A stretch of DNA of 64,000 bases from Nitrospirota bacterium (GCA_963749655.1 CAVVOB010000015.1:1-64000), one strand, 5' to 3'; counted from the first letter of the stretch, positions 3,770-42,648 are shown. A program made the numbers and translations. The notes: generated by a model not told the origin, from the letters alone.

Positions 3770-6700
3770 TTACCATGAAACCAGGCCGACCGACATTCTC
3801 AGGATCACAACCACGTCGTCGAGGTCTATCTTTCCGTCGGGCTGTGGCTGGTGGTCTATCAGCGGCGCTACGTCGCCCTGAGCGAGGTCGGAGGCGGAGG
3901 GTGTGTCGGTGCCGGACGCTATGCATAACGCTTTCAGAGCGTCCGCTGAATCCACGCCGTTGCCGTCAAAATCGCCGGAACTTTTGCTCACGCTGAAGGT
4001 CTGACTCGGTCCGAAACCTGCGGCCATGTTCCCTGCTGCGTCACTGGCGGTATTCGCCGCGATCGTTATGCCGAGCGTTCCATCGAACCCGGTAATGTTC
4101 GAAATAGTTATGATTCCGACGCTCGTTGCCGATCTTCCGACCGATACCGCGCCGCCCGCGCTGCCCGTAGCGTTTACTGTTATGTCTGCCGCGCTAAGGG
4201 TCAGATTGTCGGCGCCGTTGTACATAACCAAATAGGTCACCGACTGACTGCCGTCAGCCACGGACAGCGACGGCTGGCTGATCGTTATCGTCGGCGCCGT
4301 AGTGTCGAAGGTATGGACGAACCGTGCTGCCGCGCTGTTCCCGTTCCCCGCAGCGTCGGAGGCGACGGCTGCGGCGATGTCGACGGTGATGTCTCCGTCC
4401 GCTGCAGGCGTTACGGAGAAGGAATAGACATCTCCGCTGCCTGCGAAAGACCCGCTCGTGACGACGCCGTTGACGATCGACACGCCTGACGCGGTGAAAC
4501 CAGTGACCGGCTTGCTGAACAGAACGTTCATGGGGATCGGCGAGAAGCGTGTAGGCCTGGACACCGTTGAACTGATCGTCACGCCGGGGGCCGCGGTGTC
4601 GACGGACCAGGAGACCGATACGGGCGAAGGATCCCCGTTCCCTGCCCGGTCTATCGAGCGCACTTCAAAGGTATGAGTACCCGTTGTGACGATATACGTT
4701 TGAGGGCTGGTACAGCCGGCATATTCCCCGTTGTCGATCCGGCACTCGAACGATGACCCCGGTTCGCTGGCCGTGAACGAGAAGGTCGCGCTCGTCTGGT
4801 TCGTCTGCGCCGGAGGCTGGCTGGTTACCGTCGTGTCCGGTGCGCTGATATCGATCGTCCATGAATAGGCTGCCGGAGAAGCATCGGTGTTTCCCGCCGG
4901 GATCGATCGAGCGCACCTCGAAGAGGTGATCACCATCGGTTCCAGAATACGTTTTGGGACTGGTGCATGCCGCGTATGCGCCGTTATCGATCCGGCATTC
5001 GAAGGACGCTCCCGCCTTGGTGCTCGTGAAGGAAAACACAGCGCTTGTCTGGTTCGTGGGATTCGCAGGCTGGCTCGTGATGGTCGTGTCCGGCGCCGTC
5101 GTGTCGATCACCCAGGAATAGGCTGCCGGGGAGGCGTCAACGTTTCCCGCCGGATCGATCGAGCGCACCTCAAAGGTATGGTTCCCTGCTGCCAGGGTGT
5201 ACGTTTTGGGGCTCGTGCACGCCGTATACCCGCCGCCTTCCATCCGGCATTCAAAAGACGCTCCTGTTTCCGTTGACGAGAAGGCAAAGGTTGCGCCTGT
5301 CTGGTTCGTGAGATTCTCAGGCTGGCCCGTGATGGTCGTATCCGGCACCGTCGTGTCGATCACCCAGGAATACGTTGGCGGAGATGCATCAGCGTTTCCC
5401 GCCGAGTCGATCGAACGTACTTCGAACGTATGGCTCCCTGCTGTCAGGGTGTAGGTTCTGGGGCTGGAGCATGCCGTATACCCTCCGCTGTCCATCTGAC
5501 ACTCGAATTGAGCGGACTCGGTGGTGGCAAAGGTAAACGTCGCATCTGTCTGGTTCGTGGGATTCGAAGGCTTGCCCGTAATGGCAGTGTCCGGCGCAGT
5601 CGTGTCGATTACCCAGGAGTATGCAGCCGGTGATGCATCACTATTTCCCGCCGGATCGATTGAACGGACCTCGAAGATATGGCTCCCTGAAGTCAAGGTA
5701 TAGGTTTTCGGGCTCGCGCATGTCGAAAATCCTCCGCTGTCAGTCTGACACTCGAATTGAGCGGACTCGGTGGCTGTAAAGGTAAACGTCGCGCCTGTCT
5801 GGTTCGTGGGATTCGCAGGCCGGTCCGTGATGGTTGTGTCCGGTGCCGTCGTGTCGATCACCCAGGAATACGATGCCGGAGTTGGATCACTGTTGCCTGC
5901 CAGGTCGATCGACCGCACCTCAAAGGTATGGTTCCCTGCGGTTACAGCGCAGGTCCTGGGACTCGTGCACAGAGCATAGTCTTCGTGGTCCAGCCGGCAT
6001 TCGAATTGGACCGACTCGGTTGCCGTAAAGGCAAAGCTCGCGTCCGTCTGGTTCGTGAGGCCTGCAGGTCCGGACGTGATCGATGTGTCGGGAGCAGTGG
6101 AGTCGTAGAGCAGCGAGAGGGAAATAACGCCGTTCCCGTTACCCGCGCTGTCATGAGCGGCGCCGGCAGCTATTCCGGCCGTAACAACGCCGTCCTGGCC
6201 GGGTGTCAGGTAAAACACATAGACCGATCCGCTTCCGCTGAAGGATCCGGCTGTGATCGAACCGTTTTGAACGGTTACGTCGGATTCGTAGAAATCAGAA
6301 ACCTCCTTGCTGAACTCCACGGTTACGGAAAGCGGCGTGAGCCTCGTGGGACTCGAAACCGACGTTTTCATGATTACGTCCAGGACCGCAGTGTCGATAG
6401 TCCAGGAATAGGTTGCCGGAGAGGCATCGGTGTTCCCTGCCGTGTCAGTGGCGCGAACGGTGAAGGTATGGGTGCATTACTGGCAGATAATGCTGTAGTC
6501 TCGCGGACTCGTGCAGGCCGCATATCCCCGCTGTCGATCCGGCATTCGAACGGAGCAGCCTCCGTCGAGCGTGCAAAGGTAAATACCGCACTCGTCTGAT
6601 TGGTCGGATTTGCCGGCTGGCTGGTGATGGTCGTGTCCGGTGCAATGGTGTCGATCAGCCAGGAGTAGGACGCAGGCGTGGCATCGACGTTCCCTGCCGG

Positions 6701-9700
6701 TCGATCGACCGCACCTTGAAGGTATGGCTCCCGTCCGGCGAGTCCGGTGAAGGTCTTGGGACTCGTGCAGGCGAGTAGGCGCCGCTGTCGATCTGGCATT
6801 CGAACGCTGCAGTCTCGGTCGCCGTGAAGGCGAAGCTCGCACTCGTCTGGTTCGTGGGGTTTGACGGCTGGCTGGTGATGGTCGTATCCGGCTGCAGTTG
6901 TGTCGATCATCCAGGAGTAGGTTGCCGGAGTGGCATCGGTGTTGCCTGCCATGTCATGGAACGGACATTGAAGGTATGGTGTCTGACCGGCAAAGTACTT
7001 AGGTCCTGGGACTCGTGCAGGCCGCATATCCCCCGCCGTCGATCTGGCACTCGAAGGCCGAGCCAGCCTCGGTCGAAGTGAAGGAGAAGCTTGCGCTCGT
7101 CTGGTTCGTCGGGATTCAGGGGCTGGCTCGTGATGGTCGTGTCCGGCGCAGTCGTGTCGATCACCCAGGAGTAGGTTGCCGGTGTTGCATCGATGTTGCC
7201 TGCCGTGTCAATCGAGCGCACGTGAAGGTGTGGGTCCCTTGCGGCCAGGCTGAAGCTTGTGGGGCTGGTGCAGGCGAGTACCCGCCCGTTGTCGATCCGG
7301 CACTCGAAGGTCGGCAGCCTCGGTCGAAGTGAATGAAAAACTTGCACTCGTCTGGTTCGTGGGATTCGGGGCTGACCCGTGATGGTCGTGTCCGGGGCTG
7401 TTGTGTCGATCACCCAGGAGTACGTTGCCGGGGATGTGCATCGACATGTTCCCTGCCGTGTCATGGAGCGCACGTGAAGGTATGGGTCATTACTGGCAAG
7501 ATTGTCTATAGGTCTTTGGGCTCGTGCAGGACTGCATAGTTCCCCATTGTCGATCCGGCATTCGAAGTGGCTTACTCGGTGGCGGTAAACGTAAATGTTG
7601 CACTCGTCTGGTTCGTCGGGTTGACAGGCTGGCGGTGATGGTCGTGTCCGGTGCGTGGTGTCGATCACCCAGGAGTAGGTTGCCGGTGCGGCATCCGTGT
7701 TGCCTGCGGTATCAATGGAACGCACATCGAACTGGTGGTTCCCCGCTGTCATGGTGTACGTTCCGGGGCTCGTGCATGCCGAATAGCCGCCGCCGTCCAT
7801 CTGGCATTCGAATCGGGCGGACTCCGTGGCAATAAACGTAAACGTCGCACTCGTCTGGTTCGTGGGGTTCGCGGGCCGGCCCGTGATGGTCGTGTCCGGC
7901 GCCGTTGTATCGATCACCCAGGAACACGTTGCCGGCGATGCGTCAACGTTGCCTGCTGCGTCCGTCGAGCGAACGTCGAACGTGTGACTCCCCGCTGACA
8001 ATGAGTACGTTTTCGGGCTGGGACACGGTGCATACCCTCCGCCATCCATTTGACATTCAAAGGATGCCCCTGCTTCCGTTGACGAGAACGTAAAGCTTGC
8101 ACTCGTCTGGTTCGTTGGGTTCGCGGGCTGGCTCGTTATCGTCGTGTCCGGAACGTTTGTGTCGATCGCCCAGGAGTAAGTTGCCGGTGAACCATCAGTG
8201 CTGCCTGCAGGATCGATGGATCGTGCGTCGAACGTGTGATTCCCCGCTGTCAATGCGTACGTTTTTGGGCTGGTGCACGCAGCATACCCTCCTCCATCCA
8301 TCCGGCATTCAAAGGAAGCTCCTGCTTCCGTTGATGAGAAGGCAAAACGCGCGCTCGTCTGATTCGTGGGATTCGCGGGCTGGCTCGTAATGGTCGTGTC
8401 GGGAGCCGTCGTGTCGATCGCCCAGGACCAGGTTGCCGCAGTGGCGTCGGTGTTGCCCGCCTTGTCTGTCGCCTGCACGGAAAACGTATGGTTTCCGGCG
8501 GAAAGAGTGTAAGCCTTGGGGCTCGTGCAGGCTGAATAGCTCCCGTTGTCCATCTTGCAGGTAAATGAAGACCCCTCTTCTGTGGCCGAGAAGGCAAAAC
8601 TGGCGCTCGTCTGGTTCGTGAGGCTCGCGGGCCGGCTCGTGATGGTCGTGTCGGGCGCCGTCGTGTCGATCACCCAGGAATAGCTGGCCGGTGATGCGTC
8701 AACATTGCCTGCTGAGTCTATCGAACGCACGTCGAACGTATGGTTTCCGGCAGACAAGGTATAGGTATTCGGGCTCGTGCATGTTGTATAGCCGCCGCCG
8801 TCGATCTGACACTCGAACCGGGCGGACTCGGTTGCCGAAAAGATGAACGTTGCGGTCATTTGATTCGTCGGATTGACCGGCTTGCCTGTGATGGTCGTAT
8901 CCGGAACCGTCGTGTCGATCGTCCAGGAGTAGGTCGCCGGAGTGGGGTCGCTGTTGCCGGCAACGTCGATCGCCCGCACATCGAATACATGGCTTCCGTC
9001 GTTCAGGGAGTATGTTTTCGGGCTCGAACACGCTCCATACACTCCGTTGTCGATCCGGCACTCAAAGGACGACCCCGATTCGTTCGACGTAAAAGCAAAT
9101 GTGCAGTTCGTCTGATTCGCCGGGTTTGCCGGTTTGCTCGTGATGGAGGTGTCCGGTGAGAAATTGTTCACGGAAACGGTTACGGATGAACTTGCGCTGT
9201 TGCCTGCTTCATCATATGCCGCGGCCTTGACCACGTGCGATCCCTCTGAAGCAAGAGAGGTATCCCAGGTCCAGCCGTACGGCGACGTCGTATCGGTCAG
9301 CTGCAGGACGTCATCAAGGTAAAACTCGATCCTGGCCACGCCTTTGTCGTCGGAAGCGGTGGCAGAAACCGATACCGAAGCCGAGACCGTCGATCCGTTC
9401 TGAGGAGCAGTGATCGAAACAGACGGGGGGGTCGTATCCTCGGACGAGACGAATCCGGTCAGCGTAAAGATGCTGTTTGCCGGCGCATTGAAGGCGAACG
9501 TTCCGTTCGTGACAGAAACGTCGTTCAGCCGGGCAAAATTCTTGGACGAGTCGGTGTCGCTCGTCCAGTAGAACTGGAAATCGCTCACCCCCGTCAGATT
9601 CGCGAGCGTCCCCGCGTAAGCGATGGACCCGTAACCGGTGTTTCTTCCCACGAGCGTCACCTGTCCGGTCGGCTGATGATGGAATCCGTACAGTACGACA

Positions 9701-10815
9701 TTTCCGTCGGACTGCGAAGCCGCTATCCTCACCGATCCCGGAGGAACGAATTTGAACAGCTGTTCATACTGATAAAAGCATTTCCTCGGCGAGTAGGTGC
9801 CCGCCGATGCGTTATAGGACAGGGCCGCGGGGCCTTCTCCGGCGTCGTTCGGCGGGGTTGAGCCGTTTCCCATCAGAATGGCGTGATGATAGACACTGTC
9901 ATACCCTTCCCAGACATAGATGGCCGCAGGGCCCTGGCTTATCGTGGCAAAGATATCGGCAGGCTCTATGATCTCCGTCATGTGGAAGTTCCTGTCGGGA
10001 TAGGCGGACCGCTTTATGGTCTGATCGGCGCTGCCTGTGCTGCCGGTGAAGTCATGCAATCCGAAATGCCGCACTTTGGACATGACGGTGCTGTCTTTCA
10101 TCATCTCAGCCATATAGCCCGATACGCCCGTAGTGATCGTTGCGGTCGTCGGGCCGACGATCCCGACGTCGGACAGGCCGATTGAGTCGAGTTTCTGAGC
10201 AAGTTTATTGAGAAGCCGCACGTATTGATATTTGTCGACCTTGGGGCCTTCGTAGCCGTTCCAGTCCGGTTCATTCAGCGGATCGATCTGGGAAAACGAC
10301 AAATGCATCGTTTCCCGCGCGTAGTAAATGAGAGAGACGATCATCTCCACCCATTCGTCTTCGGCTGACGTATTGATATACTCGCCGCCCATCCAGTCCG
10401 GGACTCTGCCCATGAAGCTCAGCACAATCCCGGTAGAGGCCCCTTTTTGGTTCAGATAGCCGATCGTTCCCCACAGGTTCTGGAATTTATCATTGCCATA
10501 GAGGGCGTCGTAGTAAGTCCAGTCCATGACGGCCGGATCCGAGTTGTCGTTTTCGGCCTCCCAATCTTCCATGTCGAAGACGACCCGCCACAGCGTGGCC
10601 CCCATTTCGTCTGACAGCCTGTCCAGCGCGGGCATCAGCTCCCCGTTCTTCCAGCTGAGAGAATTGATGTTGACGCCGAATCCGTCGATGGTTTGATACT
10701 GCTGAGCGCCGTCGACCGACAGGGTTACGGCGGCAGAGGCTGCAAAGGGCGAAAGAAATAGTGAAGCGATCAGCACCCAAAGGGCGATGGCGGTGTTCGG
10801 GTTTTTCCTGTTCAT
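3770..10815 (-). CDS. giant secreted protein (~2350 aa): GH30-like glycoside hydrolase, Ig domain, ~17 Cys-paired Ig-like repeats, other Ig-like domains, C-terminal dockerin-like domain; frameshifted, mostly 6380-7680 and ~4900
   Basis: Signal peptide (..SPFAASA|A), YQTIDGFG, LNEPD acid/base, HMTE nucleophile, GH30-type C-terminal beta sandwich; ORFs 6907-10854, 6374-7027, 4665-6371 and 3770-4936 continue the same repeat; ends [21 protein letters not shown]. Confidence 0.8.
4605..9165 (-). repeat. array of ~17 coding repeats of ~250-260 bp (APDTTIT..P.NPTNQT.A.F.F...FEC..D.G.Y..CTSP.TY....HTF.VR..D.AGN.D.SPA.YSW.ID), interrupted by one different Ig-like domain at ~6110-6380
   Basis: Directly visible in protein and DNA. 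Confidence 0.85.
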
Positions 10816-10988: not shown

Positions 10989-13900
10989 CTACCAGTTCAG
11001 CAGTCCGATTGATTTTCTCAGGATCACCACGACGTCGTCGAGATTGATTTTCCCGTCAGGAGACGGAATCCCGTTCTTCAGCGGCGCCACGTCCCCATGG
11101 GCGAGGTCGGAGGCTGACGGCGACTGGAGACCCGACACTATGCTCAGCGCCTTCAGCGCATCGCTCACATCAACGCCGTTTCCGTCAAAGTCTCCCGTAC
11201 TGTTATCCACGACGAAGGTCTGACTCGGCCCTGCCGCAGGGGCGACATTGCCCGCGCTGTCGCTGGCTGTATTTGCCGCGATCGTTATGCCGAGCGTCCC
11301 CTTATAGCCGGTGATCTGCGCCACCGATACCGTTCTGGTGACGTTGCCGGAGCCTGAAACGGTGACGATGCCGCTTGCGCTGTCCGTCGCATTGACGGCC
11401 ACATCTTCCGTTCTCAGCGTGACGGTATCGGCACCGATATAGGTGATGGTATATATGACCGCTGTACTGTTATCGGCGGTCGACACGGACGGTGCGCTGA
11501 TGACGACGGCCGGCGCCGTGATGTCGATCGTGATCGCAAAGCTGCCCGCAGACGACCAGTTGCCGGCGTTGTCCCATTCCTGGACGTACAGAACGTGAGA
11601 TCCCTCCGGAAGCGCTGTAGCGGGTGCATAGCTTGTCCCGGTCGTTGTGGTTGCGCCGCTGCTGAGATCGGCGCTGTTGAGCTTGAAGCGATAGGTCCCG
11701 TTGCCGCCTCCTCCCGAGGCCCATGTCCAGAGCGGCACGGTATTGTTCGTCGGCGTCGCACCGGATACGGCAGGTGCATTCGGCGCCGTCGTATCGATCA
11801 TCCAGGAATAGGCGGCAGACGTGGGATCGGTGTTTCCTGCCGTGTCCGTGGCCCGGACATCGAACGTGTGGGTCTGGTTTCCGGCAAGACTGCTGTACGT
11901 TGCAGGGCTTGTACAGGCCGTGTATGCGCCTCCATCGATCCGGCACTCGAAGGTCGAACCGGCTTCGTTTGCGCTAAAGGAGAAGCTTGCGCTCGTCTGG
12001 TCCGTCGGATTGACCGGTTCATCGGTTATGGACGTATCCGGCGCCGTGGTATCGATCATCCAGGAATAAGTGGCAGGCGTGGGATCGGTGTTTCCTGCCG
12101 TGTCCGTGGCCCGGACGTCGAAGGTGTGGGTCTGTCCCGCGGCCAGGCTGCTGTACGTTGCCGGGCTTGAACAGGCTGAGTACCCGCCGCCGTCGATCCG
12201 GCATTCGAAGGTCGAACCCGCCTTGGTGACGCTGAAGGTGAAGCTGGCTCCGGTCTGGTTCGTCGGATTCAGCGGCTTGCCGGTAATGGACGTGTCCGGC
12301 GCTGCGGTGTCGATCAGCCACGAATAGCTCGCCGGCGTGTCATCAATGTTCCCTGCCGTGTCCGTTGACCGGACGGAGAAGGTATGGGTCTGGCCCGCGG
12401 AAAGACTGCTGTAGGTCTTGGGGCTGGTGCAGGACGAATACCCTGCGGCATCCATCTGGCACTCGAAGGTCGAGCCGGCTTCCGACGAGCTGAAGGTGAA
12501 GCTCGCGCTCTGCTGGTTCGACGGATTTACCGGTTGACCTGTGATCGATGTATTGGGAGCCGTGGTGTCGATCACCCATGAATAGGAAGCAGGCGATGCG
12601 TCAGTGTTCCCGGCCGCGTCAATGGCCCGGACTGAGAAGGTGTGGGTCTGACCGGTGGTAAGGCTGGAGTACGTCTTGGGGCTGGTGCAGGACGAATACC
12701 CTGCGGCATCCATCTGGCACTCGAAGGTCGAACCGGCTTCCGTCGAGGTGAAGGTGAAGCTGGCGCCCTGTTGATTCGTCGGGTTCACCGGCTGGCTGGA
12801 GATCGACGTATCAGGAGCAGTCGAGTCGTAGGTAATGGAAAGCGACCCGGCCCCGTTCCCGTTGCCTGCGGAGTCATGGGCGGCGTCTGCGGCTATGGAG
12901 ACGGACACCAGACTGTTGAGGGACGGTATGACGGTAAAGGAATAGGATTTGTTGTTGCCGGTAAAGGAACCAACAGACATTGAGCCGTTCGTAATGCTCA
13001 CATCCGCCGCCGTGAAGTCTGCGACCGATTTACTGAAGGCAACGTCGATCGGGATCGGCGATATTCTCGTCGGATCGGGAGCGGTCGTTGATATCGTCAT
13101 CCCGAGGGCCGAGGTATCGATCAGCCATGAGTACGTTGCAGACGTACCATCGGTGTTCCCCGCCGCGTCCGTTGCCCGGACGTCGAAGGTATGGGTCATC
13201 CCCGAGCCGAGACCGCTGTAGGTCTTGGGGCCGGTGCAGGACGAATACCCTGCGCCATCCATCTGGCACTCGAAAGTCGAGCCCGCCTCGGAGGAGCTGA
13301 AGGTGAAGCTCGCGCCCGTCTGGTTCGTCGGGTTCGCAGGCTGGCTGGTGATGGACGTGTTGGGAGCAGTCGTATCGATCACCCAGATAGAGGTAGCCGG
13401 TGTTGCATCGGTGTTCCCTGCCGTGTCAGTGGCCCGGACATCGAAGGTATGGGTCTGGCCTGCAGACAGGCTGCTGTAGGTCTTGGGGCTCGTGCAGGAC
13501 CCGTAGGTGCCGTTGTCGATCCGGCACTCGAAGGTCGAGCCGGCCTCGGTGGAGCTGAAGGTGAAGCTCGCGCCCTGCTGGTTCGTCGGGTTCGCAGGCT
13601 GGCTCGTGATGGACGTGTTGGGAGCAGTCGAGTCGATCAGCCACGAGTAAGCTGCGGGCGAGGGATCGGTGTTTCCTGCAGGGTCGATAGCCCGGACGTT
13701 GAACGTATGCGTTGCGTTGCTTGCCAAGTTATACACTGCCGGGCTGGTGCAGGACGAATACCCTGCGCCGTCCATCTGGCACTCGAAGGTCGATCCTGCT
13801 TCGGTCGAGCTGAAGGTGAAGCTCGCGCTCTGCTGGTTCGTCGGGTTAACCGGCTGGCCGGTAATCGACGTATCAGGAGCCGTTGTGTCGATCAGCCAGG

Positions 13901-20595: not shown

Positions 20596-20697
20596 GATTA
20601 CACCTCCGGGCTGATTTGCGTGTTGTTCGCGCTGTGCAATGCAAGTCATCCTGAAACAGGATGAGCCGTGACTTAACCGCTGAAAGAATTTACCGCA

Positions 20698-26600: not shown

Positions 26601-26878
26601 GTGAGCGGCTTGCCGCCGTAGGTCGCCGAATAGGATCTCGTTCCCGTACTGCCGTACTTGGTGGTGATTGCGACCACCATCAGGCGGTTGGTGCCGGTGC
26701 CCGCCGAATAGGTAAAGGACTGCGGTGACCGGCCGGTCGTGCTGAGGCTGTTCGTCCAGCTGTCCAGAACGCTCACTGCGGCGGATGCCGTACCGGAGGC
26801 AAAAATAAGGACAAGGGCCAAAACAGCCGCAGAAACCGTCGCCATCGTGTTCAGCTTGTTTACCGTACAATTCTTCAT
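20698..26878 (-). CDS. giant secreted protein (~2060 aa): unknown beta-rich N-domain, Ig, PHP/CehA-like metallohydrolase, Ig, DUF4082-like, Ig2, Ig, deacetylase-like domain, SbsA/Big_5-like Ig, DUF4082-like; several frameshifts 22680-24030
   Basis: Signal peptide (..GTASA|A); GDPHVH and GTDYPC; core paralogous to 10989-20595; joins ORFs 23675-26878, 23178-23780, 22605-22988 and 20698-23181; ATGA overlap with upstream gene. Confidence 0.8.
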
Positions 26879-29420: not shown

Positions 29421-29471
29421 GAACGGCTCCTTGAAAACAGATTTTGAACGGGAAAACGGGTGTTCCGGCCT

Positions 29472-33280: not shown

Positions 33281-33313
33281 GTTTCCTCCTCGCTGCATTG
33301 GTCGCGTCCGCGG

Positions 33314-34354
33314 TCAATACGCTCCTTTGCCTGATACCATGGCCCAGGGTGTCTTTAAAAGGATCTTGATGTCCATCCACAGTGTCCAGTTCCTTGCATA
33401 CTGCAGATCGAGACGGACCATCTCGTCGAAGGTCGTCGAACTCCTTCCGCTCACCTGCCAGAGTCCGGTGATGCCCGGCTTCACCTCCCGGACGCGCCGC
33501 CGGTGCCAGCTTTCGTATTTTTCGAGCTCATAGGGAATAGGGGGACGCGGTCCCACCAGCGACATCTCGCCTTTCAGCACGTTCACGAACTGGGGCAGCT
33601 CGTCAAGGCTCGTCTTCCGCAGGAACATTCCCACGGACGTGATCCGGTCATCTTTCGTGATCTTGTACACTTTTGTTTCTTTGTTGTTGCCTTCCGTGTC
33701 GCACCCGGTCTTGTTCTCGATGAGGTTGTAGACGAACTCTTTGTGCCGGTCCGCGCTCTGATTGGCGTACATGCTTCTGAACTTCAGAAACTGGAATTTC
33801 TTCTCATATTGCCCCACCCGCTCCTGACGGAAGATCACCGGCCCGCGCGAAGTGAGCTTGATGCACAGGGGAATCAGGAGAAAACAGGGGGAGAAGAGGA
33901 TCAGCCCTGTGAGGCTGCCGATGATGTCCATGGTGCGCTTCAGCCGGAGTGCGCCATTGCGGTCACGGCTTTTTTTCGGCAGGTCAGGATAAAAGGTAAA
34001 CCGCGGCGAATCGACCGTCTTCATCGACCGGCCTTCATCAGGATACCGGTGAAACGATACGATGATCATGCCTGCCTGTTCGGAATGCAGTTTATCGACC
34101 AGTTCACTGTGGATCTTTTTCTGCAGGGTGTTGGTCTCGAAACTGTTCATCTCCGTAAATATGACACCCAGCACGGAGCCGTAACGGAACCAGCCCTTTA
34201 CATCGGTAACGCGCGTAAGGATCGAGAGCGCCTCCAGGGTGCCTTTCACGGTTGCGAGCCTTTTTTGCGGGTTCTGCATGGGCGAAAAATCCAGGGTCAT
34301 TACAAGGAACGGCCGTCCCGAACGCTCGCTTCGTTTTCTCTCGAACGCGAGCAT
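33314..34354 (-). CDS. priming sugar (polyprenyl glycosylphospho)transferase with N-terminal degenerate GGDEF-like domain
   Basis: [57 protein letters not shown]; true start may be slightly upstream across a frameshift. Confidence 0.9.
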
Positions 34355-34549
34355 ATCGAGAAAGGACTCCTCGCTGTAGCAGTCGTGCTGTTCCGGCGGA
34401 TAGTGACGACGTTCCTGATCCGGATGATTCCTGGTCCCTGTTTATCATTTCCAGTCTCATTGTTGTTCCTCTTCCCGATCACTTCTCGGTCTGCAGTTGT
34501 CGCCGGCGACCTCGGCCCGGCGGCCGATTTCCGCCCGGAGGCCCTATTC

Positions 34550-35854
34550 CTAAAACTCCTTCGTGATCCTGATCGCTGCCCGGTTGTTCATATAATTGTT
34601 ATCGACCGCGACAGGAGATGCGGATCGAATGTATGAATAGTCGAGCGACAGAATCAGGTCTCTCGTGAGATAGTGCTTGAATGCACCTCCGTAGATCTGC
34701 GTCCTCGTGCGGACTGACGGGCTCAAGGTCCGGTCTTCGAGGTCCTGGTACTGGGCGGACAGGGCAAGAGACGTGCGGCCCGAGAACCGATGATTGAGCG
34801 ACGCCCGGTAATCCGTGCTCGAAGCCGTCGGAACGTTGCTTCTCGCGTCACGGTAATCGTTCCGCGTTGCGCTCACTGCAAAGTCCGAACGCGACAGGAT
34901 ATGGGAAAACGACACCGTATAGGTGTCCACCTGTGTGGAAATGGTGAGCGGGTCCTCGGGAAACGACCGCTTCCAGTCGAGGGACAGGGTCGTTGCAGAG
35001 ATCTTTTCGGATATCCCCGCGCTGCCGCTGACGTATTCCCGGCTCGGCGATTGGTCATAATCGAGATGACCCGTGCCTATGGTGGCGTAAAGGAAGGAGT
35101 CTTTATCGAATTCGTACCGGGGGCCGGCATAAACGTCTGTCTGCTCGTAATTTTCAACCTCGTTGCGGTCCCTGGTTTCCTGCACACCGACTGATATCGT
35201 GAGCCGTGACGACGGGGTCCACGTCGCTTCGGCGAACAGGGTCGCGTCCTTGCGGTCCACGGCCGACGCGCTCGCTGATGACGAAATATGCGTATAGGTT
35301 GTTTCACGGTACTGAAAGCCCGTGGTCACGGCCACCAGGTCAGACGGGCGCAGTACCGCGAACGGACGGACGGAAGCGATGTTTTGTTCGGCCTGATTGA
35401 CGACAAGGCTTTGCTGCGTGTAGTCCCGCTCGATATTGAGCGATACCCTGCTCAGATCATCGGCGGCCTCGAGAAACAGCAGGTTGTCGAAAAGGACCGT
35501 CCTGTTCTTCAATTTCAGCGTCTGTGCGGAGTCGTCCCCGACGGTGCCCCGCTCGAAGTGCCGGTAGTCCAGTGAATAATCGGCGTCCCAGGTCCAGAAT
35601 GGGGATTGGTAGTGGAATACGATTGCCGGGACAGCGTGCGTTATCGTGTCTTCCTTCCCGTTGACATGTTCCAGAAGGATATTGTCGTTATATTCTTCGC
35701 CGAGAGTAATGGACGGTTTCATGGTGAACTCCGCTGCGACCGCCGGTCCGGACCAGAACAGGACGGCCGCTGCAAACACTGCTGCGAGCGACGCGTACGG
35801 CCTGCCGGCGGAAGCAAAGCGCTTCAGACTACTGTCCTTCGCTTGACGTGACAT
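34550..35854 (-). CDS. EPS-associated outer-membrane beta-barrel (TIGR03016/EpsL-like)
   Basis: Signal peptide, PSITLGEEYNDNI, amphipathic strands, terminal Phe; position in locus. Confidence 0.78.
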   Translation of the reverse strand: MSRQAKDSSLKRFASAGRPYASLAAVFAAAVLFWSGPAVAAEFTMKPSITLGEEYNDNILLEHVNGKEDTITHAVPAIVFHYQSPFWTWDADYSLDYRHFERGTVGDDSAQTLKLKNRTVLFDNLLFLEAADDLSRVSLNIERDYTQQSLVVNQAEQNIASVRPFAVLRPSDLVAVTTGFQYRETTYTHISSSASASAVDRKDATLFAEATWTPSSRLTISVGVQETRDRNEVENYEQTDVYAGPRYEFDKDSFLYATIGTGHLDYDQSPSREYVSGSAGISEKISATTLSLDWKRSFPEDPLTISTQVDTYTVSFSHILSRSDFAVSATRNDYRDARSNVPTASSTDYRASLNHRFSGRTSLALSAQYQDLEDRTLSPSVRTRTQIYGGAFKHYLTRDLILSLDYSYIRSASPVAVDNNYMNNRAAIRITKEF

Positions 35855-36731
35855 TGAGAGCGTCGTCGCTGCTTCCGGATTTTGCGCCCGGCACCGTTCC
35901 GGACCGATAGTAATAGGGATAGCGGCTCTGTGACGGATACTTTTTCACATTGTTCAAAACCGATCCGAGAATATTGTAGTCCTGGATCAGCGACAGCGCC
36001 TGCGCGCCCGATTTGCGGTCCGATCGCCCCGCCTGCGCGACGAAAATAACGCCGTCGACGAAAGCGCAAAGGGAAAGACTGTCGGCCGCGGCCAGGAGCG
36101 GGGACGTGTCGAAAATAACATAGCGGTCGCGGTACCGTTCCTTGATCTCGAGAACCATCGATTTCATCCGTGACGAATTGATGAGCTCTGCGGGGTTCTC
36201 CGGCGGTTCACCGGCGGCAATAACGACGAGCTTGCCGATGCCGGACTTGATCATGAGCTTGGGCAATTCGACGCGCCCCGCCAGATAATCGCTCAATCCG
36301 AATTGCGGCTTCAGCCCCAGATAGGTATGCACCGACGGTTTTCTTAAATCGGCGTCCACGAGCAGCACGGTATGGTCCAGTTCATGGGAGATGGATACGG
36401 CGAGATTGATGGCCGTAACGCTCTTGCCTTCGCTCGGATGAGCGCTGGTGACCATGATCGTGTTGTGCCCGTCCTTCTTCGTGCCGGCGAGCACGCGGAC
36501 GCGGAGCTTCCGGTATTCCTCTGAGGCATAACTATAGGGATCGGTTATGGTGACGATATGGCTGTTCACGTTTGCGACGTCGACGCCGCCTTCGCCTGCG
36601 TCAAAGACCGAGGAAGGAAACGCATGGACAATGCCCCGCGCTGATGACGGGACGCCTGCGCTGACCGGCGCCGGAGCCTTGACCGATCTCATTTTTACGG
36701 CTTTTTCAAGTGCCCGTTCAATCCTGCTCAT
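35829..36731 (-). CDS. polysaccharide biosynthesis tyrosine autokinase (CpsD/CapB, XrtA-associated type)
   Basis: MSRIERALEKA, EEYRKLR, Walker A SAHPSEGKS, LLVDADLRKP, IFDTSP, Tyr-rich tail YPYYY. Confidence 0.9.
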   Translation of the reverse strand: MSRIERALEKAVKMRSVKAPAPVSAGVPSSARGIVHAFPSSVFDAGEGGVDVANVNSHIVTITDPYSYASEEYRKLRVRVLAGTKKDGHNTIMVTSAHPSEGKSVTAINLAVSISHELDHTVLLVDADLRKPSVHTYLGLKPQFGLSDYLAGRVELPKLMIKSGIGKLVVIAAGEPPENPAELINSSRMKSMVLEIKERYRDRYVIFDTSPLLAAADSLSLCAFVDGVIFVAQAGRSDRKSGAQALSLIQDYNILGSVLNNVKKYPSQSRYPYYYRSGTVPGAKSGSSDDALNVTSSEGQ

Positions 36732-36742
36732 AGAGTGCCCCG

Positions 36743-38320
36743 TCAACCTCGAAAAATGCCGATTCCCAGATACCGGGATGCCGCCTCTCCGATCAGAACG
36801 AGTATGATCAGCAGGAGGTAGGCGCCGGAAGCGACAAAAACCTTCTTGTCGCGGGCCGCTTCGATCTGTATATCCTCTTCGGTGATAATAGCCGGGATCG
36901 ATGCCAGAACGGGGATCCGCAGCCCCTTCTCTACATCGTCCACATTCTTGAAAGACCTGTCAAAATAGTCGAGAGCTGCCGCCGCGGCTATTCCCGATGC
37001 GACGCCCAGGAACAATCCCATGAGAATCATTCGAATACGGTTGGGGCTGACGGGAACACGCGGCATGACCGGCGGATCGACGATGCGGAGACGCGTCGTC
37101 TTGTCGGCGAGCTCGAGATCTTTCGTAACCCGTGCGCTTTCCCGCTTCTGGATCAACTCGTCGTAGACCCGCTGATAGGCGTTCCGGTCCCGCTGGATCT
37201 TGGACCACTCTTCCTGCTCTTTCGGCATCCGCCCCAGGTCCGCCCGCCCCGTGTTCTGCAGTCTTGTCAGCTCGTCGAGCCGGGCTTTGAGCGACTCCAT
37301 CTCCGATTCGGTCTTGGAAAGCTCTTCCTTCATCTGGCGGTACACGGGATTCATGGCCTGCATTTCCCCGCCCCCTTCGCCCTTCTTTTTATCACTTTTG
37401 ATGCCGAGCTCCATCTGTCTCTGAAGCTGATCGATCTCGCTCTTGATCCGTATGACATCGGGATAATCTTCGGTATACTTGCTCAGAAGAAGCATGAGCT
37501 GGTTGTTCAGGTAATTCAGCCTGCCTGCCGGCGAATCGTCGTGAGAAACAAAGGCGACGGTCATTTCCTTTTCGCCCGACAGCTGCTTTCGAAGGCTCTC
37601 CCGTTTTCGCTGAAGCTCCTTCAGCCTGATCTCCGTATCGATCCGACCTGTCTGGTAATTCTCGATCCTTGCGAGAAGCGTGGCTTCACTCTGGGGAACC
37701 ATGGTGGGGTTCTTTTCGCGAAACTCGCGAATGGCCTTGTCGGAATCCTCCAGCTTTTTCTTATACTCATTGAGCTGTTCGTCGATGAAAGCATAGGCGC
37801 CGAGGGCATCGTTGATCTGGAGGCCCGTGCTTTCGGCGATGAACTCATTCACCAGCGCTTCCAGCATGGTGTACACCTCTTTGGGCTCCCTCCCCTGATA
37901 GGATATCTGGAACAGGTTCTGGGTCCGTCTGTCTCCCACGCTGCTGATGGCGGTCACCTTGAGATCCTTCTGGATCGAGGCAATCCTGCCGTCATATTCG
38001 ATGGTGTCCTTGGAGCTTTCGATCCGGTCAAGCTTTTTGAGGACACGCCCGATGATCGTCCTGCTCGTTATCGTGTTCCTCAGATCAATGAGGCTCTGAT
38101 CTCCCGGAGGAACGCCGACGCCCTGGATGAGGGGATTCAACAGCGCGCTTTTCTCTATGGTTACGGAAACCGATGCCTCGTAGGTCTTCGGGCACAGGTA
38201 GCTCCCCCAGGTGAACAGCGAGACCACGAGCAGAGCAGTGGCCAGGGCTATATACCGCCTCTTCCAGATCAGGTCCCGGTACCGGTTGATATCGAATCCG
38301 GTTGGTTCTTCTTCGTGCAT
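36743..38320 (-). CDS. polysaccharide chain-length determinant (Wzc N-domain, XrtA-associated type)
   Basis: Two TMs flanking a coiled coil, YTEDYPDV, IVDPPVMP..PVSPNR. Confidence 0.88.
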   Translation of the reverse strand: MHEEEPTGFDINRYRDLIWKRRYIALATALLVVSLFTWGSYLCPKTYEASVSVTIEKSALLNPLIQGVGVPPGDQSLIDLRNTITSRTIIGRVLKKLDRIESSKDTIEYDGRIASIQKDLKVTAISSVGDRRTQNLFQISYQGREPKEVYTMLEALVNEFIAESTGLQINDALGAYAFIDEQLNEYKKKLEDSDKAIREFREKNPTMVPQSEATLLARIENYQTGRIDTEIRLKELQRKRESLRKQLSGEKEMTVAFVSHDDSPAGRLNYLNNQLMLLLSKYTEDYPDVIRIKSEIDQLQRQMELGIKSDKKKGEGGGEMQAMNPVYRQMKEELSKTESEMESLKARLDELTRLQNTGRADLGRMPKEQEEWSKIQRDRNAYQRVYDELIQKRESARVTKDLELADKTTRLRIVDPPVMPRVPVSPNRIRMILMGLFLGVASGIAAAAALDYFDRSFKNVDDVEKGLRIPVLASIPAIITEEDIQIEAARDKKVFVASGAYLLLIILVLIGEAASRYLGIGIFRG

Positions 38321-38329
38321 GGACTGCTC

Positions 38330-39182
38330 CTAAAAAAAGCTGCTGTTGACCCGTACGATATCGCCCGGTTTTAAAACGACATTCTTCGCGATCTTTCCGT
38401 TCATTACATCCTTAAGCGGCACCTTGATGTTCTTTACGACTTCATCTTCTTTACGGACGATGACGACCCCGTTCCGGCTGGCATATTCAGTAAAGCCGCC
38501 TGCGCTCAGTACGGCATCGAGCGCCGTCATGCCCTCGGCGAACGGGACGAGACCGGGCGTCTTTACTTCACCGACGACGCGAATCCGGGTGGTGATTCCG
38601 CCGGGAAGATAGATGATATCGTTGGGCTCCAACTTGACATCCTGGCTCAGATCGCCTTTCGTCATAAGTCTCAAAAAATCCACGGCAAGCCTTTTTCCGT
38701 CCCGTGATACGAAAGCGTCCTGCATCTGTACGCTGTCGAGGGACCCCAGCTGTGCAAGCATCTGGAGGAGCGTGGTGTCCCGCTTCAGCGTGTACTGACC
38801 GGTGGGAAACGATCCGTTTCCGGACGGGGCCGTCCGGGAAAGCCCTTCGCCGAAAATGTAGATTCTTGAAGCTGTTGACCGCCGTGACGAGAACGCTTAC
38901 GACGGGCGCTTTCATAAACTTCGCAAGATCCTTCTCCAACGCCACCTTGAGCTCTTGCGGCGTTTTGCCGGCCGCCCGTACATCGCCGACGAGCGGCATG
39001 GAAACCATGCCGTCAGGCCGAACAGGGACATGAACGCTCAGTTCTGCATTTCCCCAGACCGAAATCTGAAGCATGTCCTCTTCGCCGATGATATAGGCCC
39101 GGGCCGTGCCCGGTGCTGCAACGGCCGAGATGAGCACGAAGAGCAGTACGGAGAATCGGATGCTTGGGATTATTCTTTGCAT
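38330..39182 (-). CDS. wza: polysaccharide export protein (Wza/SLBB), frameshifted
   Basis: YIIGEEDMLQISVW, VRPDGMVSMPLVGDV, VVGEVKTPG, AGGFTEYA, LKPGDIV. Confidence 0.85.
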
Positions 39183-39405
39183 AATGTCTCCCGTCCGGTT
39201 CTCAGTGGGAACCGGACTTTTATCTTTCACCAACCACCGTTTGCTCCGGAAGCGAGCGCCATGGACGGATGTTGTTCCTTTATGGCCGGATATAGCTTCG
39301 CCCCTTCAGTTACAGAGGCTTTCTGCAACATGATGCAAACACGCATTTCTTGTGGGAGGCGCGGCCCTGACATCGGACCCTTTCTACGAAGCCGACGATT
39401 GCTTT

Positions 39406-40071
39406 CTATACCGTTTCTATATCCTGGGGCGAAATAGCGACCGAAACCGACCGGCCGAGCAATTCGATATTCACCTGGAACAGATACCCGTCGTCCTTCC
39501 TGAAAAGGGTTCCCTCGGCTGTTTTCAAGGGACCGTTCTTTACCCGCACACGGCATCCCTGCAGAAATTCAGGATACAGGTTGATCGCGATACCGCTGTC
39601 GACGAGGAGCCGCAGAGACTCGACTTCTTCATTTGCGATCGCCGTCGGATGGCCGGGCTCCAGTGAGACGAAACAGGCGACCCCGCGCGTCTGAAGGACT
39701 TTGATGAACAATTCAGCGTGACGCGGTATTCGCACAAACAGATATCCCGGGAAAAGGGGCTGCTCGAGGTGTTTTTTTCTGTCCTGCCATTGCCTGACGC
39801 TGGTTACGGTCGGCAAGAATGACGTGATGCCTTTTTTCATCAATTCACAGGCCGCGACAAATTCATGCCTCGACTTTACCGCGACCGCATACCAGTTCTC
39901 CAGACAAGCATGGTCGTCCGTCCCGTCAAGGGACTCCCCGGCAGGCGCGGCAACGGCGGCCTCATCCGACTGTTCGAAAACATCCGGATCGCTCCCGCTC
40001 AGTTCCGCTGCCGGTGCAGCGCATTCTGCGCTGTTCGCAGCAGCCGGCTTGTCATCAACATCTGTCTGCAT
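39406..40071 (-). CDS. UpxY-family transcription antiterminator (NusG paralog)
   Basis: WYAVAVKSRHE, RQWQDRKK..PLFPGYLFV, KOW-like RVRVKNGPL; AGGAAAGG before ATG 40071. Confidence 0.88.
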   Translation of the reverse strand: MQTDVDDKPAAANSAECAAPAAELSGSDPDVFEQSDEAAVAAPAGESLDGTDDHACLENWYAVAVKSRHEFVAACELMKKGITSFLPTVTSVRQWQDRKKHLEQPLFPGYLFVRIPRHAELFIKVLQTRGVACFVSLEPGHPTAIANEEVESLRLLVDSGIAINLYPEFLQGCRVRVKNGPLKTAEGTLFRKDDGYLFQVNIELLGRSVSVAISPQDIETV

Positions 40072-40099
40072 GAGCCCCGCCTTTCCTGTCATCAGCTGC

Positions 40100-40985
40100 C
40101 TAACTGGATTTGAGCGCGTTGATAAGCGCCGTGCAGTTCAATGATCGATCGGAACCGTTGTCTTTGCCCCAGAAATGTCCTTCAAAGTCCAGGTCGCCGG
40201 CGATTTCCTGCACCATGTCGATATCGACATCCCTCCGCTCTTCATTGAAGGCCGTGAGCAGAAGAAAATCACACAAGATGTTCAGGAGCCTCGGAATTCC
40301 GCGACTGTAGCGAAAAAGATGATCGATGCATCCTTCCCCGAAGGTTACCGCACCCCTGTTTCCGGCGATCTCCAGCCGGTGGAAGATATACTGTTCAGTC
40401 TCCTCCCGCGTAAGAGGATGGATACGGCAGCTGACGCTGATCCTCTGTCTCAGCTGTCTCAGCTCGGGAAGCGCCAGACTGTTCCGCAGTTCCGGCTGGC
40501 CGACCAGAATGATTCGAAGCAGCTTGGTCGTGGCGGTTTCGAGATTCGACAGCATTCTGATCTCCTCGAGGAGGTCGGGCTTGAAGTTCTGCGCCTCGTC
40601 GACGATCAGCAGGGACTGGTTGCCCTTTGCGTACTGCTCGATCAGGAAATCATAGAGTTCTTTCAGCAGCTTGACCTTGTCTTTTCCCTTGCTGTCGAGG
40701 CCGAAATCGTCGTTGATCATGGCAAAAAGCTGCTCCGAATTGACGTTCGTGTTGAAGATCTTCGCAAACACCACGTTCTCGTCAAGACGTTTTAACGAGA
40801 TCGCTGAGGAGCGTTGTCTTGCCCGAGCCGACGTCGCCGGTAAGAAGTATGAATCCCGCCTTTTCCCGTATGCCGTAGTTCAGGTATTGCATCGCCTTCT
40901 TATGCGTCTTGCTCATAAAAATAAAATCCGGATTCGGCACAAGCTCGAAGGGCTTTGTTCTTAAATTGAAGAAGGACTCGTACAT
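40100..40985 (-). CDS. ExeA/GspA-like AAA ATPase (XrtA-associated type), frameshift near 40790
   Basis: MYESFFNLRTKPFELVPNP, GDVGSGKTT, IVDEAQN, LVGQPEL, LRQRI, GIPRLLN. Confidence 0.88.
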
Positions 40986-41088
40986 GACGCCGGCGGTCTC
41001 CTTTTCGGCATCGTCATACCGGCGCTGCGCTGCCGCCGATGCTCCGATCTATCCGAATCGCCCTGACTTCCGTCCCCGGCGGGGACGG

Positions 41089-41467
41089 CTACTGAATCTC
41101 CTGAACAATGCCCCTCGACATCGCCTGGCCTACGAGTATTCTGAACTTGTGGTAGTCCAGCGGTTTGATGAGACAGTGCGACAAGGTCTTGTCAAAATCG
41201 TCGAGAGCTCTGGTAAGATCATGACAGACCTGGTCGGAAAGAATGATCGTGGGGATCCTCGATCGCTGAAGCTTGCCGAGGAGAGACGCGCAGTAAGGAT
41301 AGCTGGTAATGACCAGCCCCAATTCATCACTGGTTCCGGTCGAGGTCTACCTGGAACACGTCGGGAACTACGTTTATGCTGTATCCTTCTTTTTCGAGAA
41401 GCGCCGCGCAGATGCGACAGAAGATCGCATCGTCGACAATGAGTATCTTTTTCTTATGCATGTCCAT
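41089..41467 (-). CDS. stand-alone atypical receiver-domain protein, frameshift near 41330
   Basis: KKILIVDD...LVITSYP...IPTIILS...CLIKPLD across two frames. Confidence 0.7.
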
Positions 41468-41481
41468 CTCGCACAAAGAGT

Positions 41482-41497
41482 AGCAATTATGATGCCG
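41482..41497 (-). promoter_or_regulatory. sigma54 -24/-12 promoter of the EPS operon
   Basis: CGGCATCATAATTGCT matches YGGCAY-N5-TTGCW with exact spacing, just upstream of the first operon gene. Confidence 0.75.
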
Positions 41498-41557
41498 CTG
41501 CTGATACGCTGTTTTTTCGTGACCTTGCGGCCCTCTGCATGAACGCAGGTTCCAGCC

Positions 41558-41619
41558 TGTGTCCCTGGGATACATATTTTCGAAATTGCGGGTTCCTTTC
41601 GATGTAGCCGCGGGATACA
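41558..41619. promoter_or_regulatory. two putative enhancer-binding-protein sites, TGT-N11-ACA
   Basis: TGTGTCCCTGGGATACA (41558-41574) and TGTAGCCGCGGGATACA (41603-41619), centred about 95 and 140 bp upstream of the predicted start site. Confidence 0.6.
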
Positions 41620-42105
41620 CCATTCTTCATCCTCTGTAAAATCAACAATCTAAGTATTCCGATTGTACCCTGCCGGGGCACTATTCATCCCATGGTCAGC
41701 GGCTCGAAGCGGCATCATGCTCGCAGAAGTCGATGTGATCGCGCTCAACAGCGAAACGAGGGTGGCTTCTGACGACGCCGGGAATTCCGTCGTCATTGCC
41801 AGTAACTTCAAATGGTTTATCCGTGATGAATCGCCGGATAAAAACACAAAATTGCATTCGACCATGACAGGATTTTCGCACCAGCCCCGGATTTTGCGGC
41901 GGTATGCTTCTTGCACTTTTCCGGGTGGATCATTTTCGGGTGCCCGTCACTTCGCGGTTACATCGAGCCGCAGCCTTAGATAGTAAGCATCAGTAAGGAC
42001 GCGGATGCCGCTCTGGCTGTCTTCGCGAACAGAAGACACGGTGCAGCTGAATTTTTTGCTGAACAAACAGGTATTGCTGTGTATTCCACCCATCCGGAGG
42101 AAAAC

Positions 42106-42648
42106 ATGAAAAGAGCGCTTCTGCAGTTCATACTCCCCTTTGCCGTTTTCACGGCGCTCGCATCCTGCAGCTCGAGCAGCCGGAGCACAAACGGAGGCAC
42201 TAACACAGCCCCCCCCACATCAGCCGTTATCGTTTTTGCAACGTCGGTGAGCGGAACGCTGCCGGCGAACACGGTTATCACGGGCTACGACCTGACGTTC
42301 ACCCTTCCGTCAGGGGTGACTGTAAAAAGCTCGGTCCCGCCGACAACGGATGACGGTGTTGTTCAGGCAACGGGAGCGGCATCGGGGTCCATGATCACCG
42401 CCGTCTATTCTCCCGCAACGGGCGCCGGCAACGGCACGGTCAGAATCATGCTGGCGGATGCAGAGGGATTCAATGCCGGTGAATTCAGCACCGTGGTCTG
42501 CGATATCGCCGACGGTCACCAGCCTGATCCATCGGATTTCTATCATGGCCAGATGTCGCTGGCAGTGAGCGGATACGATACGGCTACGGATACGACCGTA
42601 AACCTGACCGCTGAGCTGTCGCTTTCTGCATCGGTGACGATACAGTAA
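42106..42648 (+). CDS. lipoprotein with cohesin-like beta-sandwich domain
   Basis: GGAGG RBS; lipobox LASC; Ser/Thr linker; ITGYDLTFTLPSGVTV...GTVRIMLA..GFNAGEFSTVVCDI pattern; the cohesin call is inference. Confidence 0.6.
   Translation: MKRALLQFILPFAVFTALASCSSSSRSTNGGTNTAPPTSAVIVFATSVSGTLPANTVITGYDLTFTLPSGVTVKSSVPPTTDDGVVQATGAASGSMITAVYSPATGAGNGTVRIMLADAEGFNAGEFSTVVCDIADGHQPDPSDFYHGQMSLAVSGYDTATDTTVNLTAELSLSASVTIQ

Follow-up and report, generated by a model that had tools for sequence, protein, structure and literature searches.

A candidate lipoprotein tether for dockerin-tailed giant proteins at an exopolysaccharide locus of a Nitrospirota-like bacterium

What holds very large secreted proteins at the envelope of a bacterium with two membranes is a question raised by an exopolysaccharide (EPS) locus within a 64,000-nucleotide stretch of DNA recorded as Nitrospirota bacterium (GCA_963749655.1, CAVVOB010000015.1:1-64000; hereafter the window, meaning this whole stretch). 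Two giant genes of the locus end in the same short, dockerin-like tail, and a small lipoprotein gene lies divergent to the EPS genes (Table 1). A sequence-only reading of the window had proposed that the lipoprotein is the cognate cohesin of these tails and that the parts make up a cellulosome-like assembly acting on the cell's own EPS. We consider a smaller system probable, namely a minimal, non-cellulosomal tether of the cohesin-dockerin type in which a lipid-anchored single cohesin-like domain would hold dockerin-tailed giant proteins at the envelope, beside the EPS machinery of a Nitrospirota-like diderm.

The tails share the opening GDFDGNGVD (the G of GDFDG lies at 3976 and 11195) and have Trp as the last residue before the stop codon. 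Pairwise BLASTP finds 79 of 108 residues identical (73%, E 5e-55), which together with the translations confirms that, as had been claimed, one C-terminal module is present at both positions; the block common to the two giant proteins spans 195 amino acids at 61% identity and takes in the preceding immunoglobulin (Ig)-like domain. Searches by tblastn revealed no further copy in the window (both tail sites at E 1e-30 or better, next match at E 0.077), no tail remnant upstream of the lipoprotein gene in the window, and no match to the tail in a plasmid collection. An AlphaFold 2 (AF2) model of 3773-3985 made with 37 sequences has a predicted local distance difference test score (pLDDT) of 96.3 and places helices at residues 13-23, 31-37 and 55-65. 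The family alignment and the model bear out the two loop-helix units and the insertion in loop 2 that had been described, the insert being drawn as a small hairpin. This duplicated loop-helix layout yields a three-helix fold superposable on solved dockerins; of the 35 Foldseek rows listed for the PDB, 30 are dockerins, either as modules or as chains in cohesin-dockerin complexes, and template modelling (TM) scores of 0.57-0.84 with root-mean-square deviations (rmsd) of 1.3-3.6 Å are obtained on solved type I dockerins in the top 25 rows. The Foldseek E-values are poor (0.08 and above) because the domain is so short. PF00404 (Dockerin_1) is matched by 20 of the 37 relatives at E<=1 (best 1.2e-5), and the window tails belong to that family by transitivity only, via these close relatives. 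A profile of the same 37 sequences gave 16 matches to PDB sequences at E<=10, 15 of them dockerin-bearing chains (three of which we take to be so), with a best E of 0.066 and none significant. On its modelled fold and the matches of its relatives, the tail is a real, divergent type-I-like dockerin module, and the earlier assignment of both tails to the dockerin fold holds.

For tail 1, an exhaustive phmmer search of a 1.84-billion-protein library (counted as cluster representatives, the library being made up of representatives at 50% clustering) gave 1055 relatives at E<=1e-3, of which 180 reach E<=1e-10, and with this many matches the likeness is not due to chance. Among the 150 relatives listed, the module forms the C-terminal end of the protein in 146, of which 131 terminate in Trp and 8 in Phe, a conserved terminal aromatic for which the dockerin reading offers no explanation. 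Cargo domains were scanned in 64 of the 149 other listed tail proteins, those of 300-1700 amino acids. The commonest were Big_3_5 (12 proteins), Flg_new_2 (11) and MBG_2, Glucodextran_B and Big_13 (6 each), indicative of cargo made up mostly of Ig-like or adhesin-type repeats and not of carbohydrate-active enzymes; Cohesin was absent from the 25 commonest families. Because the cargo across the family is of this type, the tail looks like a general display tag on large adhesin-like surface proteins and not like an organiser of enzyme complexes. The EPS remodelling that had been proposed therefore finds no backing in the scanned proteins, and for the cargo of the window itself it is only a plausible local reading.

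The candidate anchor is a lipoprotein whose lipobox, linker and single beta-sandwich, encoded divergently to the EPS operon, agree with the sequence-only reading. Its start codon is preceded by GGAGG at 6 nt, and the gene lies about 640 nt from the first minus-strand open reading frame (ORF) on the EPS side. A word-indexed search recovered 15 relatives and a profile search then 88 clusters at 90%, all of them unnamed, similar in size and devoid of Pfam domains, and most of them on short metagenomic contigs. In the AF2 model (15 sequences; pLDDT 82.6, predicted TM score 0.74) a disordered signal peptide and linker are followed by 9-10 strands, and the top Foldseek match in the PDB is the non-cellulosomal cohesin 2xdh (E 4.7e-3, prob 1.00, TM 0.42 by query and 0.52 by target, 12% identity); 24 of 41 rows among the matches listed are explicitly cohesins. 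An ESM Atlas cluster with PF00963 in 58% of its members scores 0.92 for the lipoprotein, behind unnamed Thermodesulfobacteriota clusters at 0.97. By sequence, one of 92 relatives (P0218) matches PF00963 at E 0.0037 and 17.9 bits, below the 24.1-bit cutoff, a profile of the 15 relatives found no cohesin among PDB sequences, and tblastn of the lipoprotein against the plasmid collection gave no match. The modelled fold is thus weakly consistent with a cohesin, and the lipoprotein goes unrecognised by PF00963. One of three longer relatives, a Big_1/invasin-type protein of 686 amino acids (P0249, source name Oryzomonas rubra), is hit by the lipoprotein profile at E 1.6e-6, and fusions of the cohesin-like module with adhesin repeats may thus exist as well in relatives of Geobacter.

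When residues 34-180 of the lipoprotein were modelled together with tail 1, each with its own alignment, the complex scored 0.66 (median of 0.66, 0.71 and 0.60), against 0.02 for the best of three controls, which were unrelated proteins and not non-cognate cohesins. The mark that this score passes is reached by 116 of 157 solved complexes and by 2 of 215 mismatched pairs, counts that are rough, own alignments having been used. The three runs agree in at least 98% of contacts with a partner pLDDT of at least 81, so that a confident modelled interface, of the kind implied by the pairing first proposed, is obtained. It involves helices 1 and 3 and the loop-2 insert of the tail, and residues 59-62, 96-100, 113-120, 153-157 and 161-164 of the lipoprotein.

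Gene order in other genomes points the same way. Of 18 matches to one peptide pattern searched for in 185,579 species genomes, three loci (L001-L003) were confirmed, all in Nitrospirota metagenome-assembled genomes (MAGs). In all three, the lipoprotein ATG is preceded on its own strand by a tail-bearing gene, whose end lies 129, 135 and 139 nt away, and L003 has a second tail-bearing gene 104 nt downstream of the lipoprotein gene. The cargo comprises ten Big_3_5 repeats with DUF5122 in L001, a PIG-L deacetylase with DUF7402 and PKD domains in L002, and DUF2341 with a GH43-like domain in both tail-bearing genes of L003. Since the cargo differs from locus to locus and the four lipoproteins, that of the window included, are only 41-53% identical, this adjacency does not just reflect recent common ancestry. 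XrtA markers exceed their NCBIfam cutoffs in L001 (TIGR03006 and TIGR03019) and L002 (TIGR03015), and L003 has only a sub-cutoff TIGR03098; the suggested co-occurrence of tail, lipoprotein and XrtA locus therefore applies to the first two parts in three of three loci and extends to clear XrtA markers in two. The ATPase/antiterminator/glmS neighbourhood of L002 is the same as in the window. As judged from the modelled complex and this adjacency, the cohesin-like lipoprotein is the probable partner of the tails. The closest relatives of the window's lipoprotein gene being those in the three Nitrospirota MAGs, the window itself is probably from Nitrospirota.

In the mechanism that we propose, very large Sec-exported proteins would carry hydrolase-type heads, long runs of Ig-like repeats and, at their end, the 68-residue divergent type-I-like dockerin, and a small lipoprotein whose gene sits at one end of the XrtA-type EPS locus would present one cohesin-like beta-sandwich on a flexible linker. 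Helices 1 and 3 and the loop-2 insertion of the dockerin would pack on one sheet of that sandwich, and the giant proteins would thereby be retained by the lipid anchor at one of the envelope membranes, inside the EPS layer or beneath it. The proposal starts from computed features, namely the dockerin fold, the signal peptides and lipobox, cohesins as the closest folds of the lipoprotein, the conserved adjacency and the confident modelled interface. From there we infer that tail and lipoprotein actually bind; a need for Ca2+, the membrane face on which the anchor would sit and any action of the cargo on the cell's own EPS are conjectural parts of the same scheme.

Several points weigh against this tether, beyond the unrelated nature of the controls in the complex model. 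The canonical Ca2+ loop of dockerins is EF-hand-like and 12 residues long, with Asp or Asn at positions 1, 3, 5, 9 and 12. Loop 1 of the window tails has 11 residues, one short of the family norm DLNGDGxVDxxD (among the tail relatives, 14 of 146 have the short form and 61 the canonical pattern), and loop 2 runs D-V-A-P, with Ala at position 3, then an insert of about 8 residues and then D-G-K-I-D-L-D-D. The window tails thus depart from the canonical arrangement of two 12-residue loops, and Ca2+ binding by them is uncertain because loop 1 is short and loop 2 interrupted; nor do they match anything in Pfam at E<=10, in NCBIfam or among PDB sequences. On the anchor side, being a lipoprotein does not ensure exposure at the surface of a diderm (under the sorting rule of E. 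coli, Ser or Gly at position +2 points to the outer membrane), and for the cargo no route of export across that membrane was identified. The claim that the lipoprotein is a cohesin stands in so far as its best Foldseek matches are cohesins, and falls short in that none of these reaches E<=1e-3 (TM values of only about 0.4-0.5) and in that the window lipoprotein has no match of its own in Pfam, NCBIfam or PDB sequences. The predicted interface is moreover its most variable surface, with a mean column entropy of 2.34 bits at its 24 positions, compared with 1.62 bits at the remaining 118, and the most conserved motif of the family, LPxGVTVKS (residues 67-75, window 42304-42330), lies outside it; the variable interface could set specificity, or the real functional surface could be elsewhere. 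Tails also vastly outnumber their supposed receptors (1055 representatives against 88 lipoprotein clusters and a lipoprotein locus in 3 genomes), so either most tails use other partners or the searches, which were limited to shared words or one peptide pattern, missed relatives. Finally, the window is the exception to the adjacency, with 31 kb between the lipoprotein and the nearest tail. All these observations on the lipoprotein, its interface, its numbers and its distance would fit a reading in which the tails are true dockerins that bind another cohesin encoded elsewhere and the lipoprotein is an unrelated beta-sandwich lipoprotein of the EPS system, for example a polysaccharide-binding or export accessory that has no more than its location in common with the surface-protein genes. 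We regard this as unlikely, given that tail gene and lipoprotein gene adjoin on the same strand in three of three loci despite different cargo heads and lipoprotein identities of 41-53%, that the complex score exceeds its best control so widely (0.66 and 0.02), and that no Pfam Cohesin (PF00963) was found in any other ORF scanned in the window and the three loci. The complex score may itself reflect likeness to, or memory of, the many solved cohesin-dockerin complexes. As a separate observation, LPxGVTVKS may mark a second function of the lipoprotein.

Neither giant gene is a single ORF in this assembly, which also counts against the tether and would suit decay of the system in this genome, the giant genes being pseudogenes and the lipoprotein a leftover apart from the tail genes. 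Frame changes are several in giant gene 1, one in giant gene 2 and two in a third giant gene, and the usual order of tail gene followed by lipoprotein gene is absent from the window. We hold this reading, which overlaps with the others, to be rather improbable. The lipoprotein ORF is intact with a good ribosome-binding site, and housekeeping-type EPS genes are broken in the same manner (a flippase at 1829-3701, a GFO/IDH oxidoreductase at 31803-33213, the Wza-like gene at 38330-39233 and the XrtA-type ATPase at 40100-41048). Because these ordinary genes are split as well and the conserved residues of the repeat units are kept on both sides of the breaks, which fits assembly indels better, we think, while remaining undecided, that the breaks are assembly indels and not decay. 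We give still less credence to a reading of the tail as mainly a C-terminal sorting, secretion or matrix-attachment tag, read by an export or sorting machine or binding Ca2+ or EPS directly with no cohesin involved, in which case the lipoprotein could be a chaperone or adaptor. A constraint on terminal position and terminal aromatic residue, as seen in the 146 C-terminal relatives, is what sorting signals typically show and does not define dockerins, the cargo consists of generic large surface proteins, and the genes lie within loci of the XrtA/PEP-CTERM sorting system. The module is nevertheless a compact three-helix dockerin folded with high confidence, unlike a hydrophobic anchor or a secretion domain of the beta-sandwich kind, its modelled contact is made by the same two helices as in dockerins, and among the scanned ORFs no secretion-system genes adjoin the tail genes.

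A true cellulosome-like complex of several enzymes was rejected, given one cohesin-like domain and mostly adhesin-like cargo. The assembly proposed at first would imply a scaffoldin, in which several cohesins gather dockerin-bearing enzymes; the lipoprotein is single-domain, and the search for fused or tandem forms found three longer relatives, none with a Cohesin match and none shown to be tandem. The likeness to cellulosomal type I pairs is otherwise considerable. The tail model superposes on those of Clostridium thermocellum (1ohz/2ccl) and Acetivibrio cellulolyticus (5nrk/5nrm) with TM scores of 0.7-0.84 and an rmsd of about 2 Å, the duplicated loop-helix layout and the location at the C-terminus of secreted multidomain proteins are shared, and helices 1 and 3 contact a beta-sheet face of the partner, here in the model only. 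Unlike cellulosomes, the present system has no scaffoldin, a single-domain partner, a diderm host and a setting in EPS biosynthesis in place of plant cell-wall degradation, and its tails have an insert of about 8 residues in loop 2, a short loop 1 and an almost invariant terminal Trp. Its anchor is a lipobox, where SLH domains or sortase serve in cellulosomes according to the portion of PMC9012536 considered here.

The best structural match of the lipoprotein, 2xdh from Archaeoglobus fulgidus, is likewise a single cohesin-type domain outside a cellulosome; the two differ in that the lipoprotein, 12% identical, belongs to a bacterial lipoprotein family not recognised by PF00963. Weaker fold and sequence matches (E 0.14-7) include the NagH/NagJ pairs of Clostridium perfringens (2ozn, 2o4e, 2jnk), also non-cellulosomal and joining large secreted glycoside hydrolases, which differ in their Gram-positive host and in linking enzyme to enzyme where a lipid anchor is found here. 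Non-cellulosomal cohesin and dockerin modules were reportedly described in all domains of life, with function unknown, by Peer et al. in 2009. The portions of the later literature considered here state that such modules are widespread and that their roles are unknown (PMC5244752, PMC9012536), and that an adhesin role has been put forward for adjacent cohesin and dockerin genes of syntrophic sulfate-reducing bacteria and anaerobic methanotrophic (ANME) archaea (PMC10553843, PMC9012536, PMC5244752). As far as those portions go, the latter pairs resemble the present one in the neighbouring cohesin and dockerin genes, the environmental diderm bacteria, the polysaccharide loci or biofilm matrix and the large Ig-like or adhesin cargo (PMC10553843, PMC9012536); they were found by standard domain annotation, which the lipoprotein family described here escapes, and the same portions make no mention of a lipid-anchored single cohesin or of an XrtA link (PMC10553843, PMC9012536, PMC5244752). 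An earlier description of a lipobox-anchored single cohesin, of a Nitrospirota system or of an XrtA link was not found in the literature so covered, and the supplements of PMC10553843 (S10 Table) and PMC9012536 (S4 Data) could list similar genes; literature joining dockerin, cohesin and PEP-CTERM was likewise not found. The cohesin-dockerin principle is already known; what is newly recognised is the lipoprotein family, and the type of anchor and the genomic setting differ from those of cellulosomes.

The pair is simple and testable, consisting of a lipoprotein that has a single cohesin-like domain and of cargo genes that immediately adjoin it in three other genomes. If the binding is true, diderm bacteria tether giant adhesin- or hydrolase-type proteins to the envelope via a lipid-anchored cohesin, at least 88 clusters of 'hypothetical' lipoproteins gain a function, more than 1000 dockerin-tailed proteins gain an annotation handle, and a way opens into how protein and polysaccharide components are coordinated in the biofilm matrix. 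A bolder and doubtful extension is that a family of receptors missed by Pfam, each a lipid-anchored protein with a single cohesin-like domain, might be the missing anchor for the very large family of Trp-terminated dockerin giant surface proteins in Nitrospirota and related anaerobic diderms, forming a dedicated envelope display wired into XrtA/PEP-CTERM EPS loci, in which C-terminal position and terminal aromatic would also serve outer-membrane sorting.

Table 1. Features of the tether candidate and its surroundings, in coordinates of the window
Feature	Position	Strand	Evidence
Dockerin-like tail 1, 68 residues, ends ...GLVSW, stop 3770-3772	3773..3976	-	Translation, AF2, Foldseek, library relatives
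Giant gene 1, frame-broken	3770..10815	-	Translations, open frames, Pfam, PDB phmmer
Dockerin-like tail 2, 68 residues, ends ...GLLNW, stop 10989-10991	10992..11195	-	Translation, BLASTP to tail 1
Giant gene 2, one frame break near 19200-19340	10989..20595	-	Translations, Pfam, NCBIfam NF038032, open frames
Third giant gene (context), three frame pieces, without dockerin tail	20698..26878	-	Pfam, NCBIfam, open frames
XrtA/PEP-CTERM-type EPS core (context)	33314..41048	-	Pfam, NCBIfam
Divergent intergenic region between EPS-side minus-strand ORFs and lipoprotein gene	41468..42105	.	Sequence reading
Lipoprotein, 180 residues, lipobox LASC (Cys21), Ser-rich linker, one cohesin-like beta-sandwich (about 39-180), candidate anchor; ATG at 42106	42106..42648	+	Translation, AF2, Foldseek, complex model, adjacency in 3/3 loci

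The two tailed genes differ in their heads, and both have long runs of Ig-like repeats. Giant gene 1 encodes, in order, a signal peptide, a GH30-like head (about 9400-10740) that matches GH30 xylanases at E 5e-9 to 3e-5 (PDB phmmer), Big_7, many Ig-like repeats of about 90 amino acids (Big_13/OmpL47-type), Big_12 and the dockerin tail. The ORF that contains tail 1 has 388 amino acids, and several frame breaks have to be crossed upstream of it before the signal peptide at about 10815 is reached; the gene is in at least four frame pieces, with several frame changes between about 7500 and 4700, and the stretch 7500-6400 switches in and out of frame several times. Giant gene 2 begins with a signal peptide, a CehA/McbA-type metallohydrolase (about 19468-20478; NCBIfam NF038032, E 2e-40), He_PIG, DUF4082 (about 18525-18953), Big_2 and He_PIG, and continues with a region of about 570 amino acids (16245-17957), about 17 Ig-like repeats, Big_12 and the dockerin tail. 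Its tail ORF of 2736 amino acids lacks a signal peptide of its own and is joined across one frame break to the metallohydrolase head (18958-20649), which has one. The description of both products as giant secreted proteins is accordingly right as to the signal peptides, which stand on upstream pieces, and has to be modified as to their being single ORFs. The same is true of the heads that had been named, where GH30-like and metallohydrolase identities are confirmed and a deacetylase-like identity for the region of about 570 amino acids is only a lead, from ESM Atlas clusters of Polysacc_deac_1 (PF01522) at 0.93-0.94; PDB phmmer with 16100-17951 gave no match. Pfam on the heads without an assignment gave sub-threshold hints only (Glyco_hydro_59M at E 0.048, DUF4350 at E 0.055 and 0.009).

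The third giant gene encodes a paralogous CehA/McbA head, He_PIG, DUF4082, Big_2, Big_5 and a terminal DUF4082, together with an N-terminal region of about 370 amino acids rich in Ser, Thr and Asn. No tail was found in it, nothing better than E 0.42 being returned by tblastn. It offers a natural untagged comparison for its tailed paralogue.

By its Pfam and NCBIfam markers, the stretch between about 800 and 41000 on the minus strand constitutes an EPS locus of XrtA/PEP-CTERM type. Two markers exceed their NCBIfam cutoffs in the window, namely TIGR03007, the chain-length determinant of the XrtA system (36743-38320; 401 bits, cutoff 279), and TIGR03016, a PEP-CTERM-associated outer-membrane protein (34550-35854; 120 bits, cutoff 91); a TIGR03018-like tyrosine kinase and a TIGR03015 ATPase, the latter a fragment, fall below theirs. 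Pfam identifies sugar-nucleotide enzymes, a priming transferase, a Wza-like exporter and a NusG/UpxY-like factor as their neighbours. The EPS core is thus composed of the priming sugar transferase, the TIGR03016 protein, the TIGR03018-like kinase, TIGR03007, the Wza-like exporter (split), the NusG/UpxY-like factor and the TIGR03015-like ATPase (split). Neither an XrtA exosortase gene nor PEP-CTERM substrates were found among the scanned ORFs, not all of which were compared with NCBIfam, and with no search aimed at the PEP-CTERM motif.

Some minor features of the surroundings may be added. Between the EPS core and the divergent intergenic region, a short ORF (41330-41467, minus strand) beginning M-D-M-H-K-K-K-I-L-I-V-D-D resembles by eye the start of a response-regulator receiver and then breaks off; a family scan of the frame piece downstream of it gave no match. 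On the other side, glmS (42742-44571, plus strand) directly follows the lipoprotein gene and is itself followed by a PocR-GAF-GGDEF diguanylate cyclase (44944-47013, plus strand). glmS is also kept beside the pair of tail gene and lipoprotein gene in L002, and control of the locus by cyclic di-GMP is conceivable. A minus-strand ORF of 460 amino acids (47078-48460) has a Cas12f1-like TNB domain (E 2.5e-7), hence is TnpB-like, and adjoins the stretch of lowest guanine-cytosine content in the window (48001-50000, 0.47); with tRNA-Arg(CCT) at 49487-49563 and tRNA-Pro(CGG) at 50894-50970 nearby, this may represent insertion of a mobile element at a tRNA. A second envelope-related cluster at 55282-59046 encodes a PEGA-domain protein (55282-56022), a CsgG/FlgO-like lipoprotein (56129-57004) and an Lnb_N/DUF7840 protein (57088-59046).

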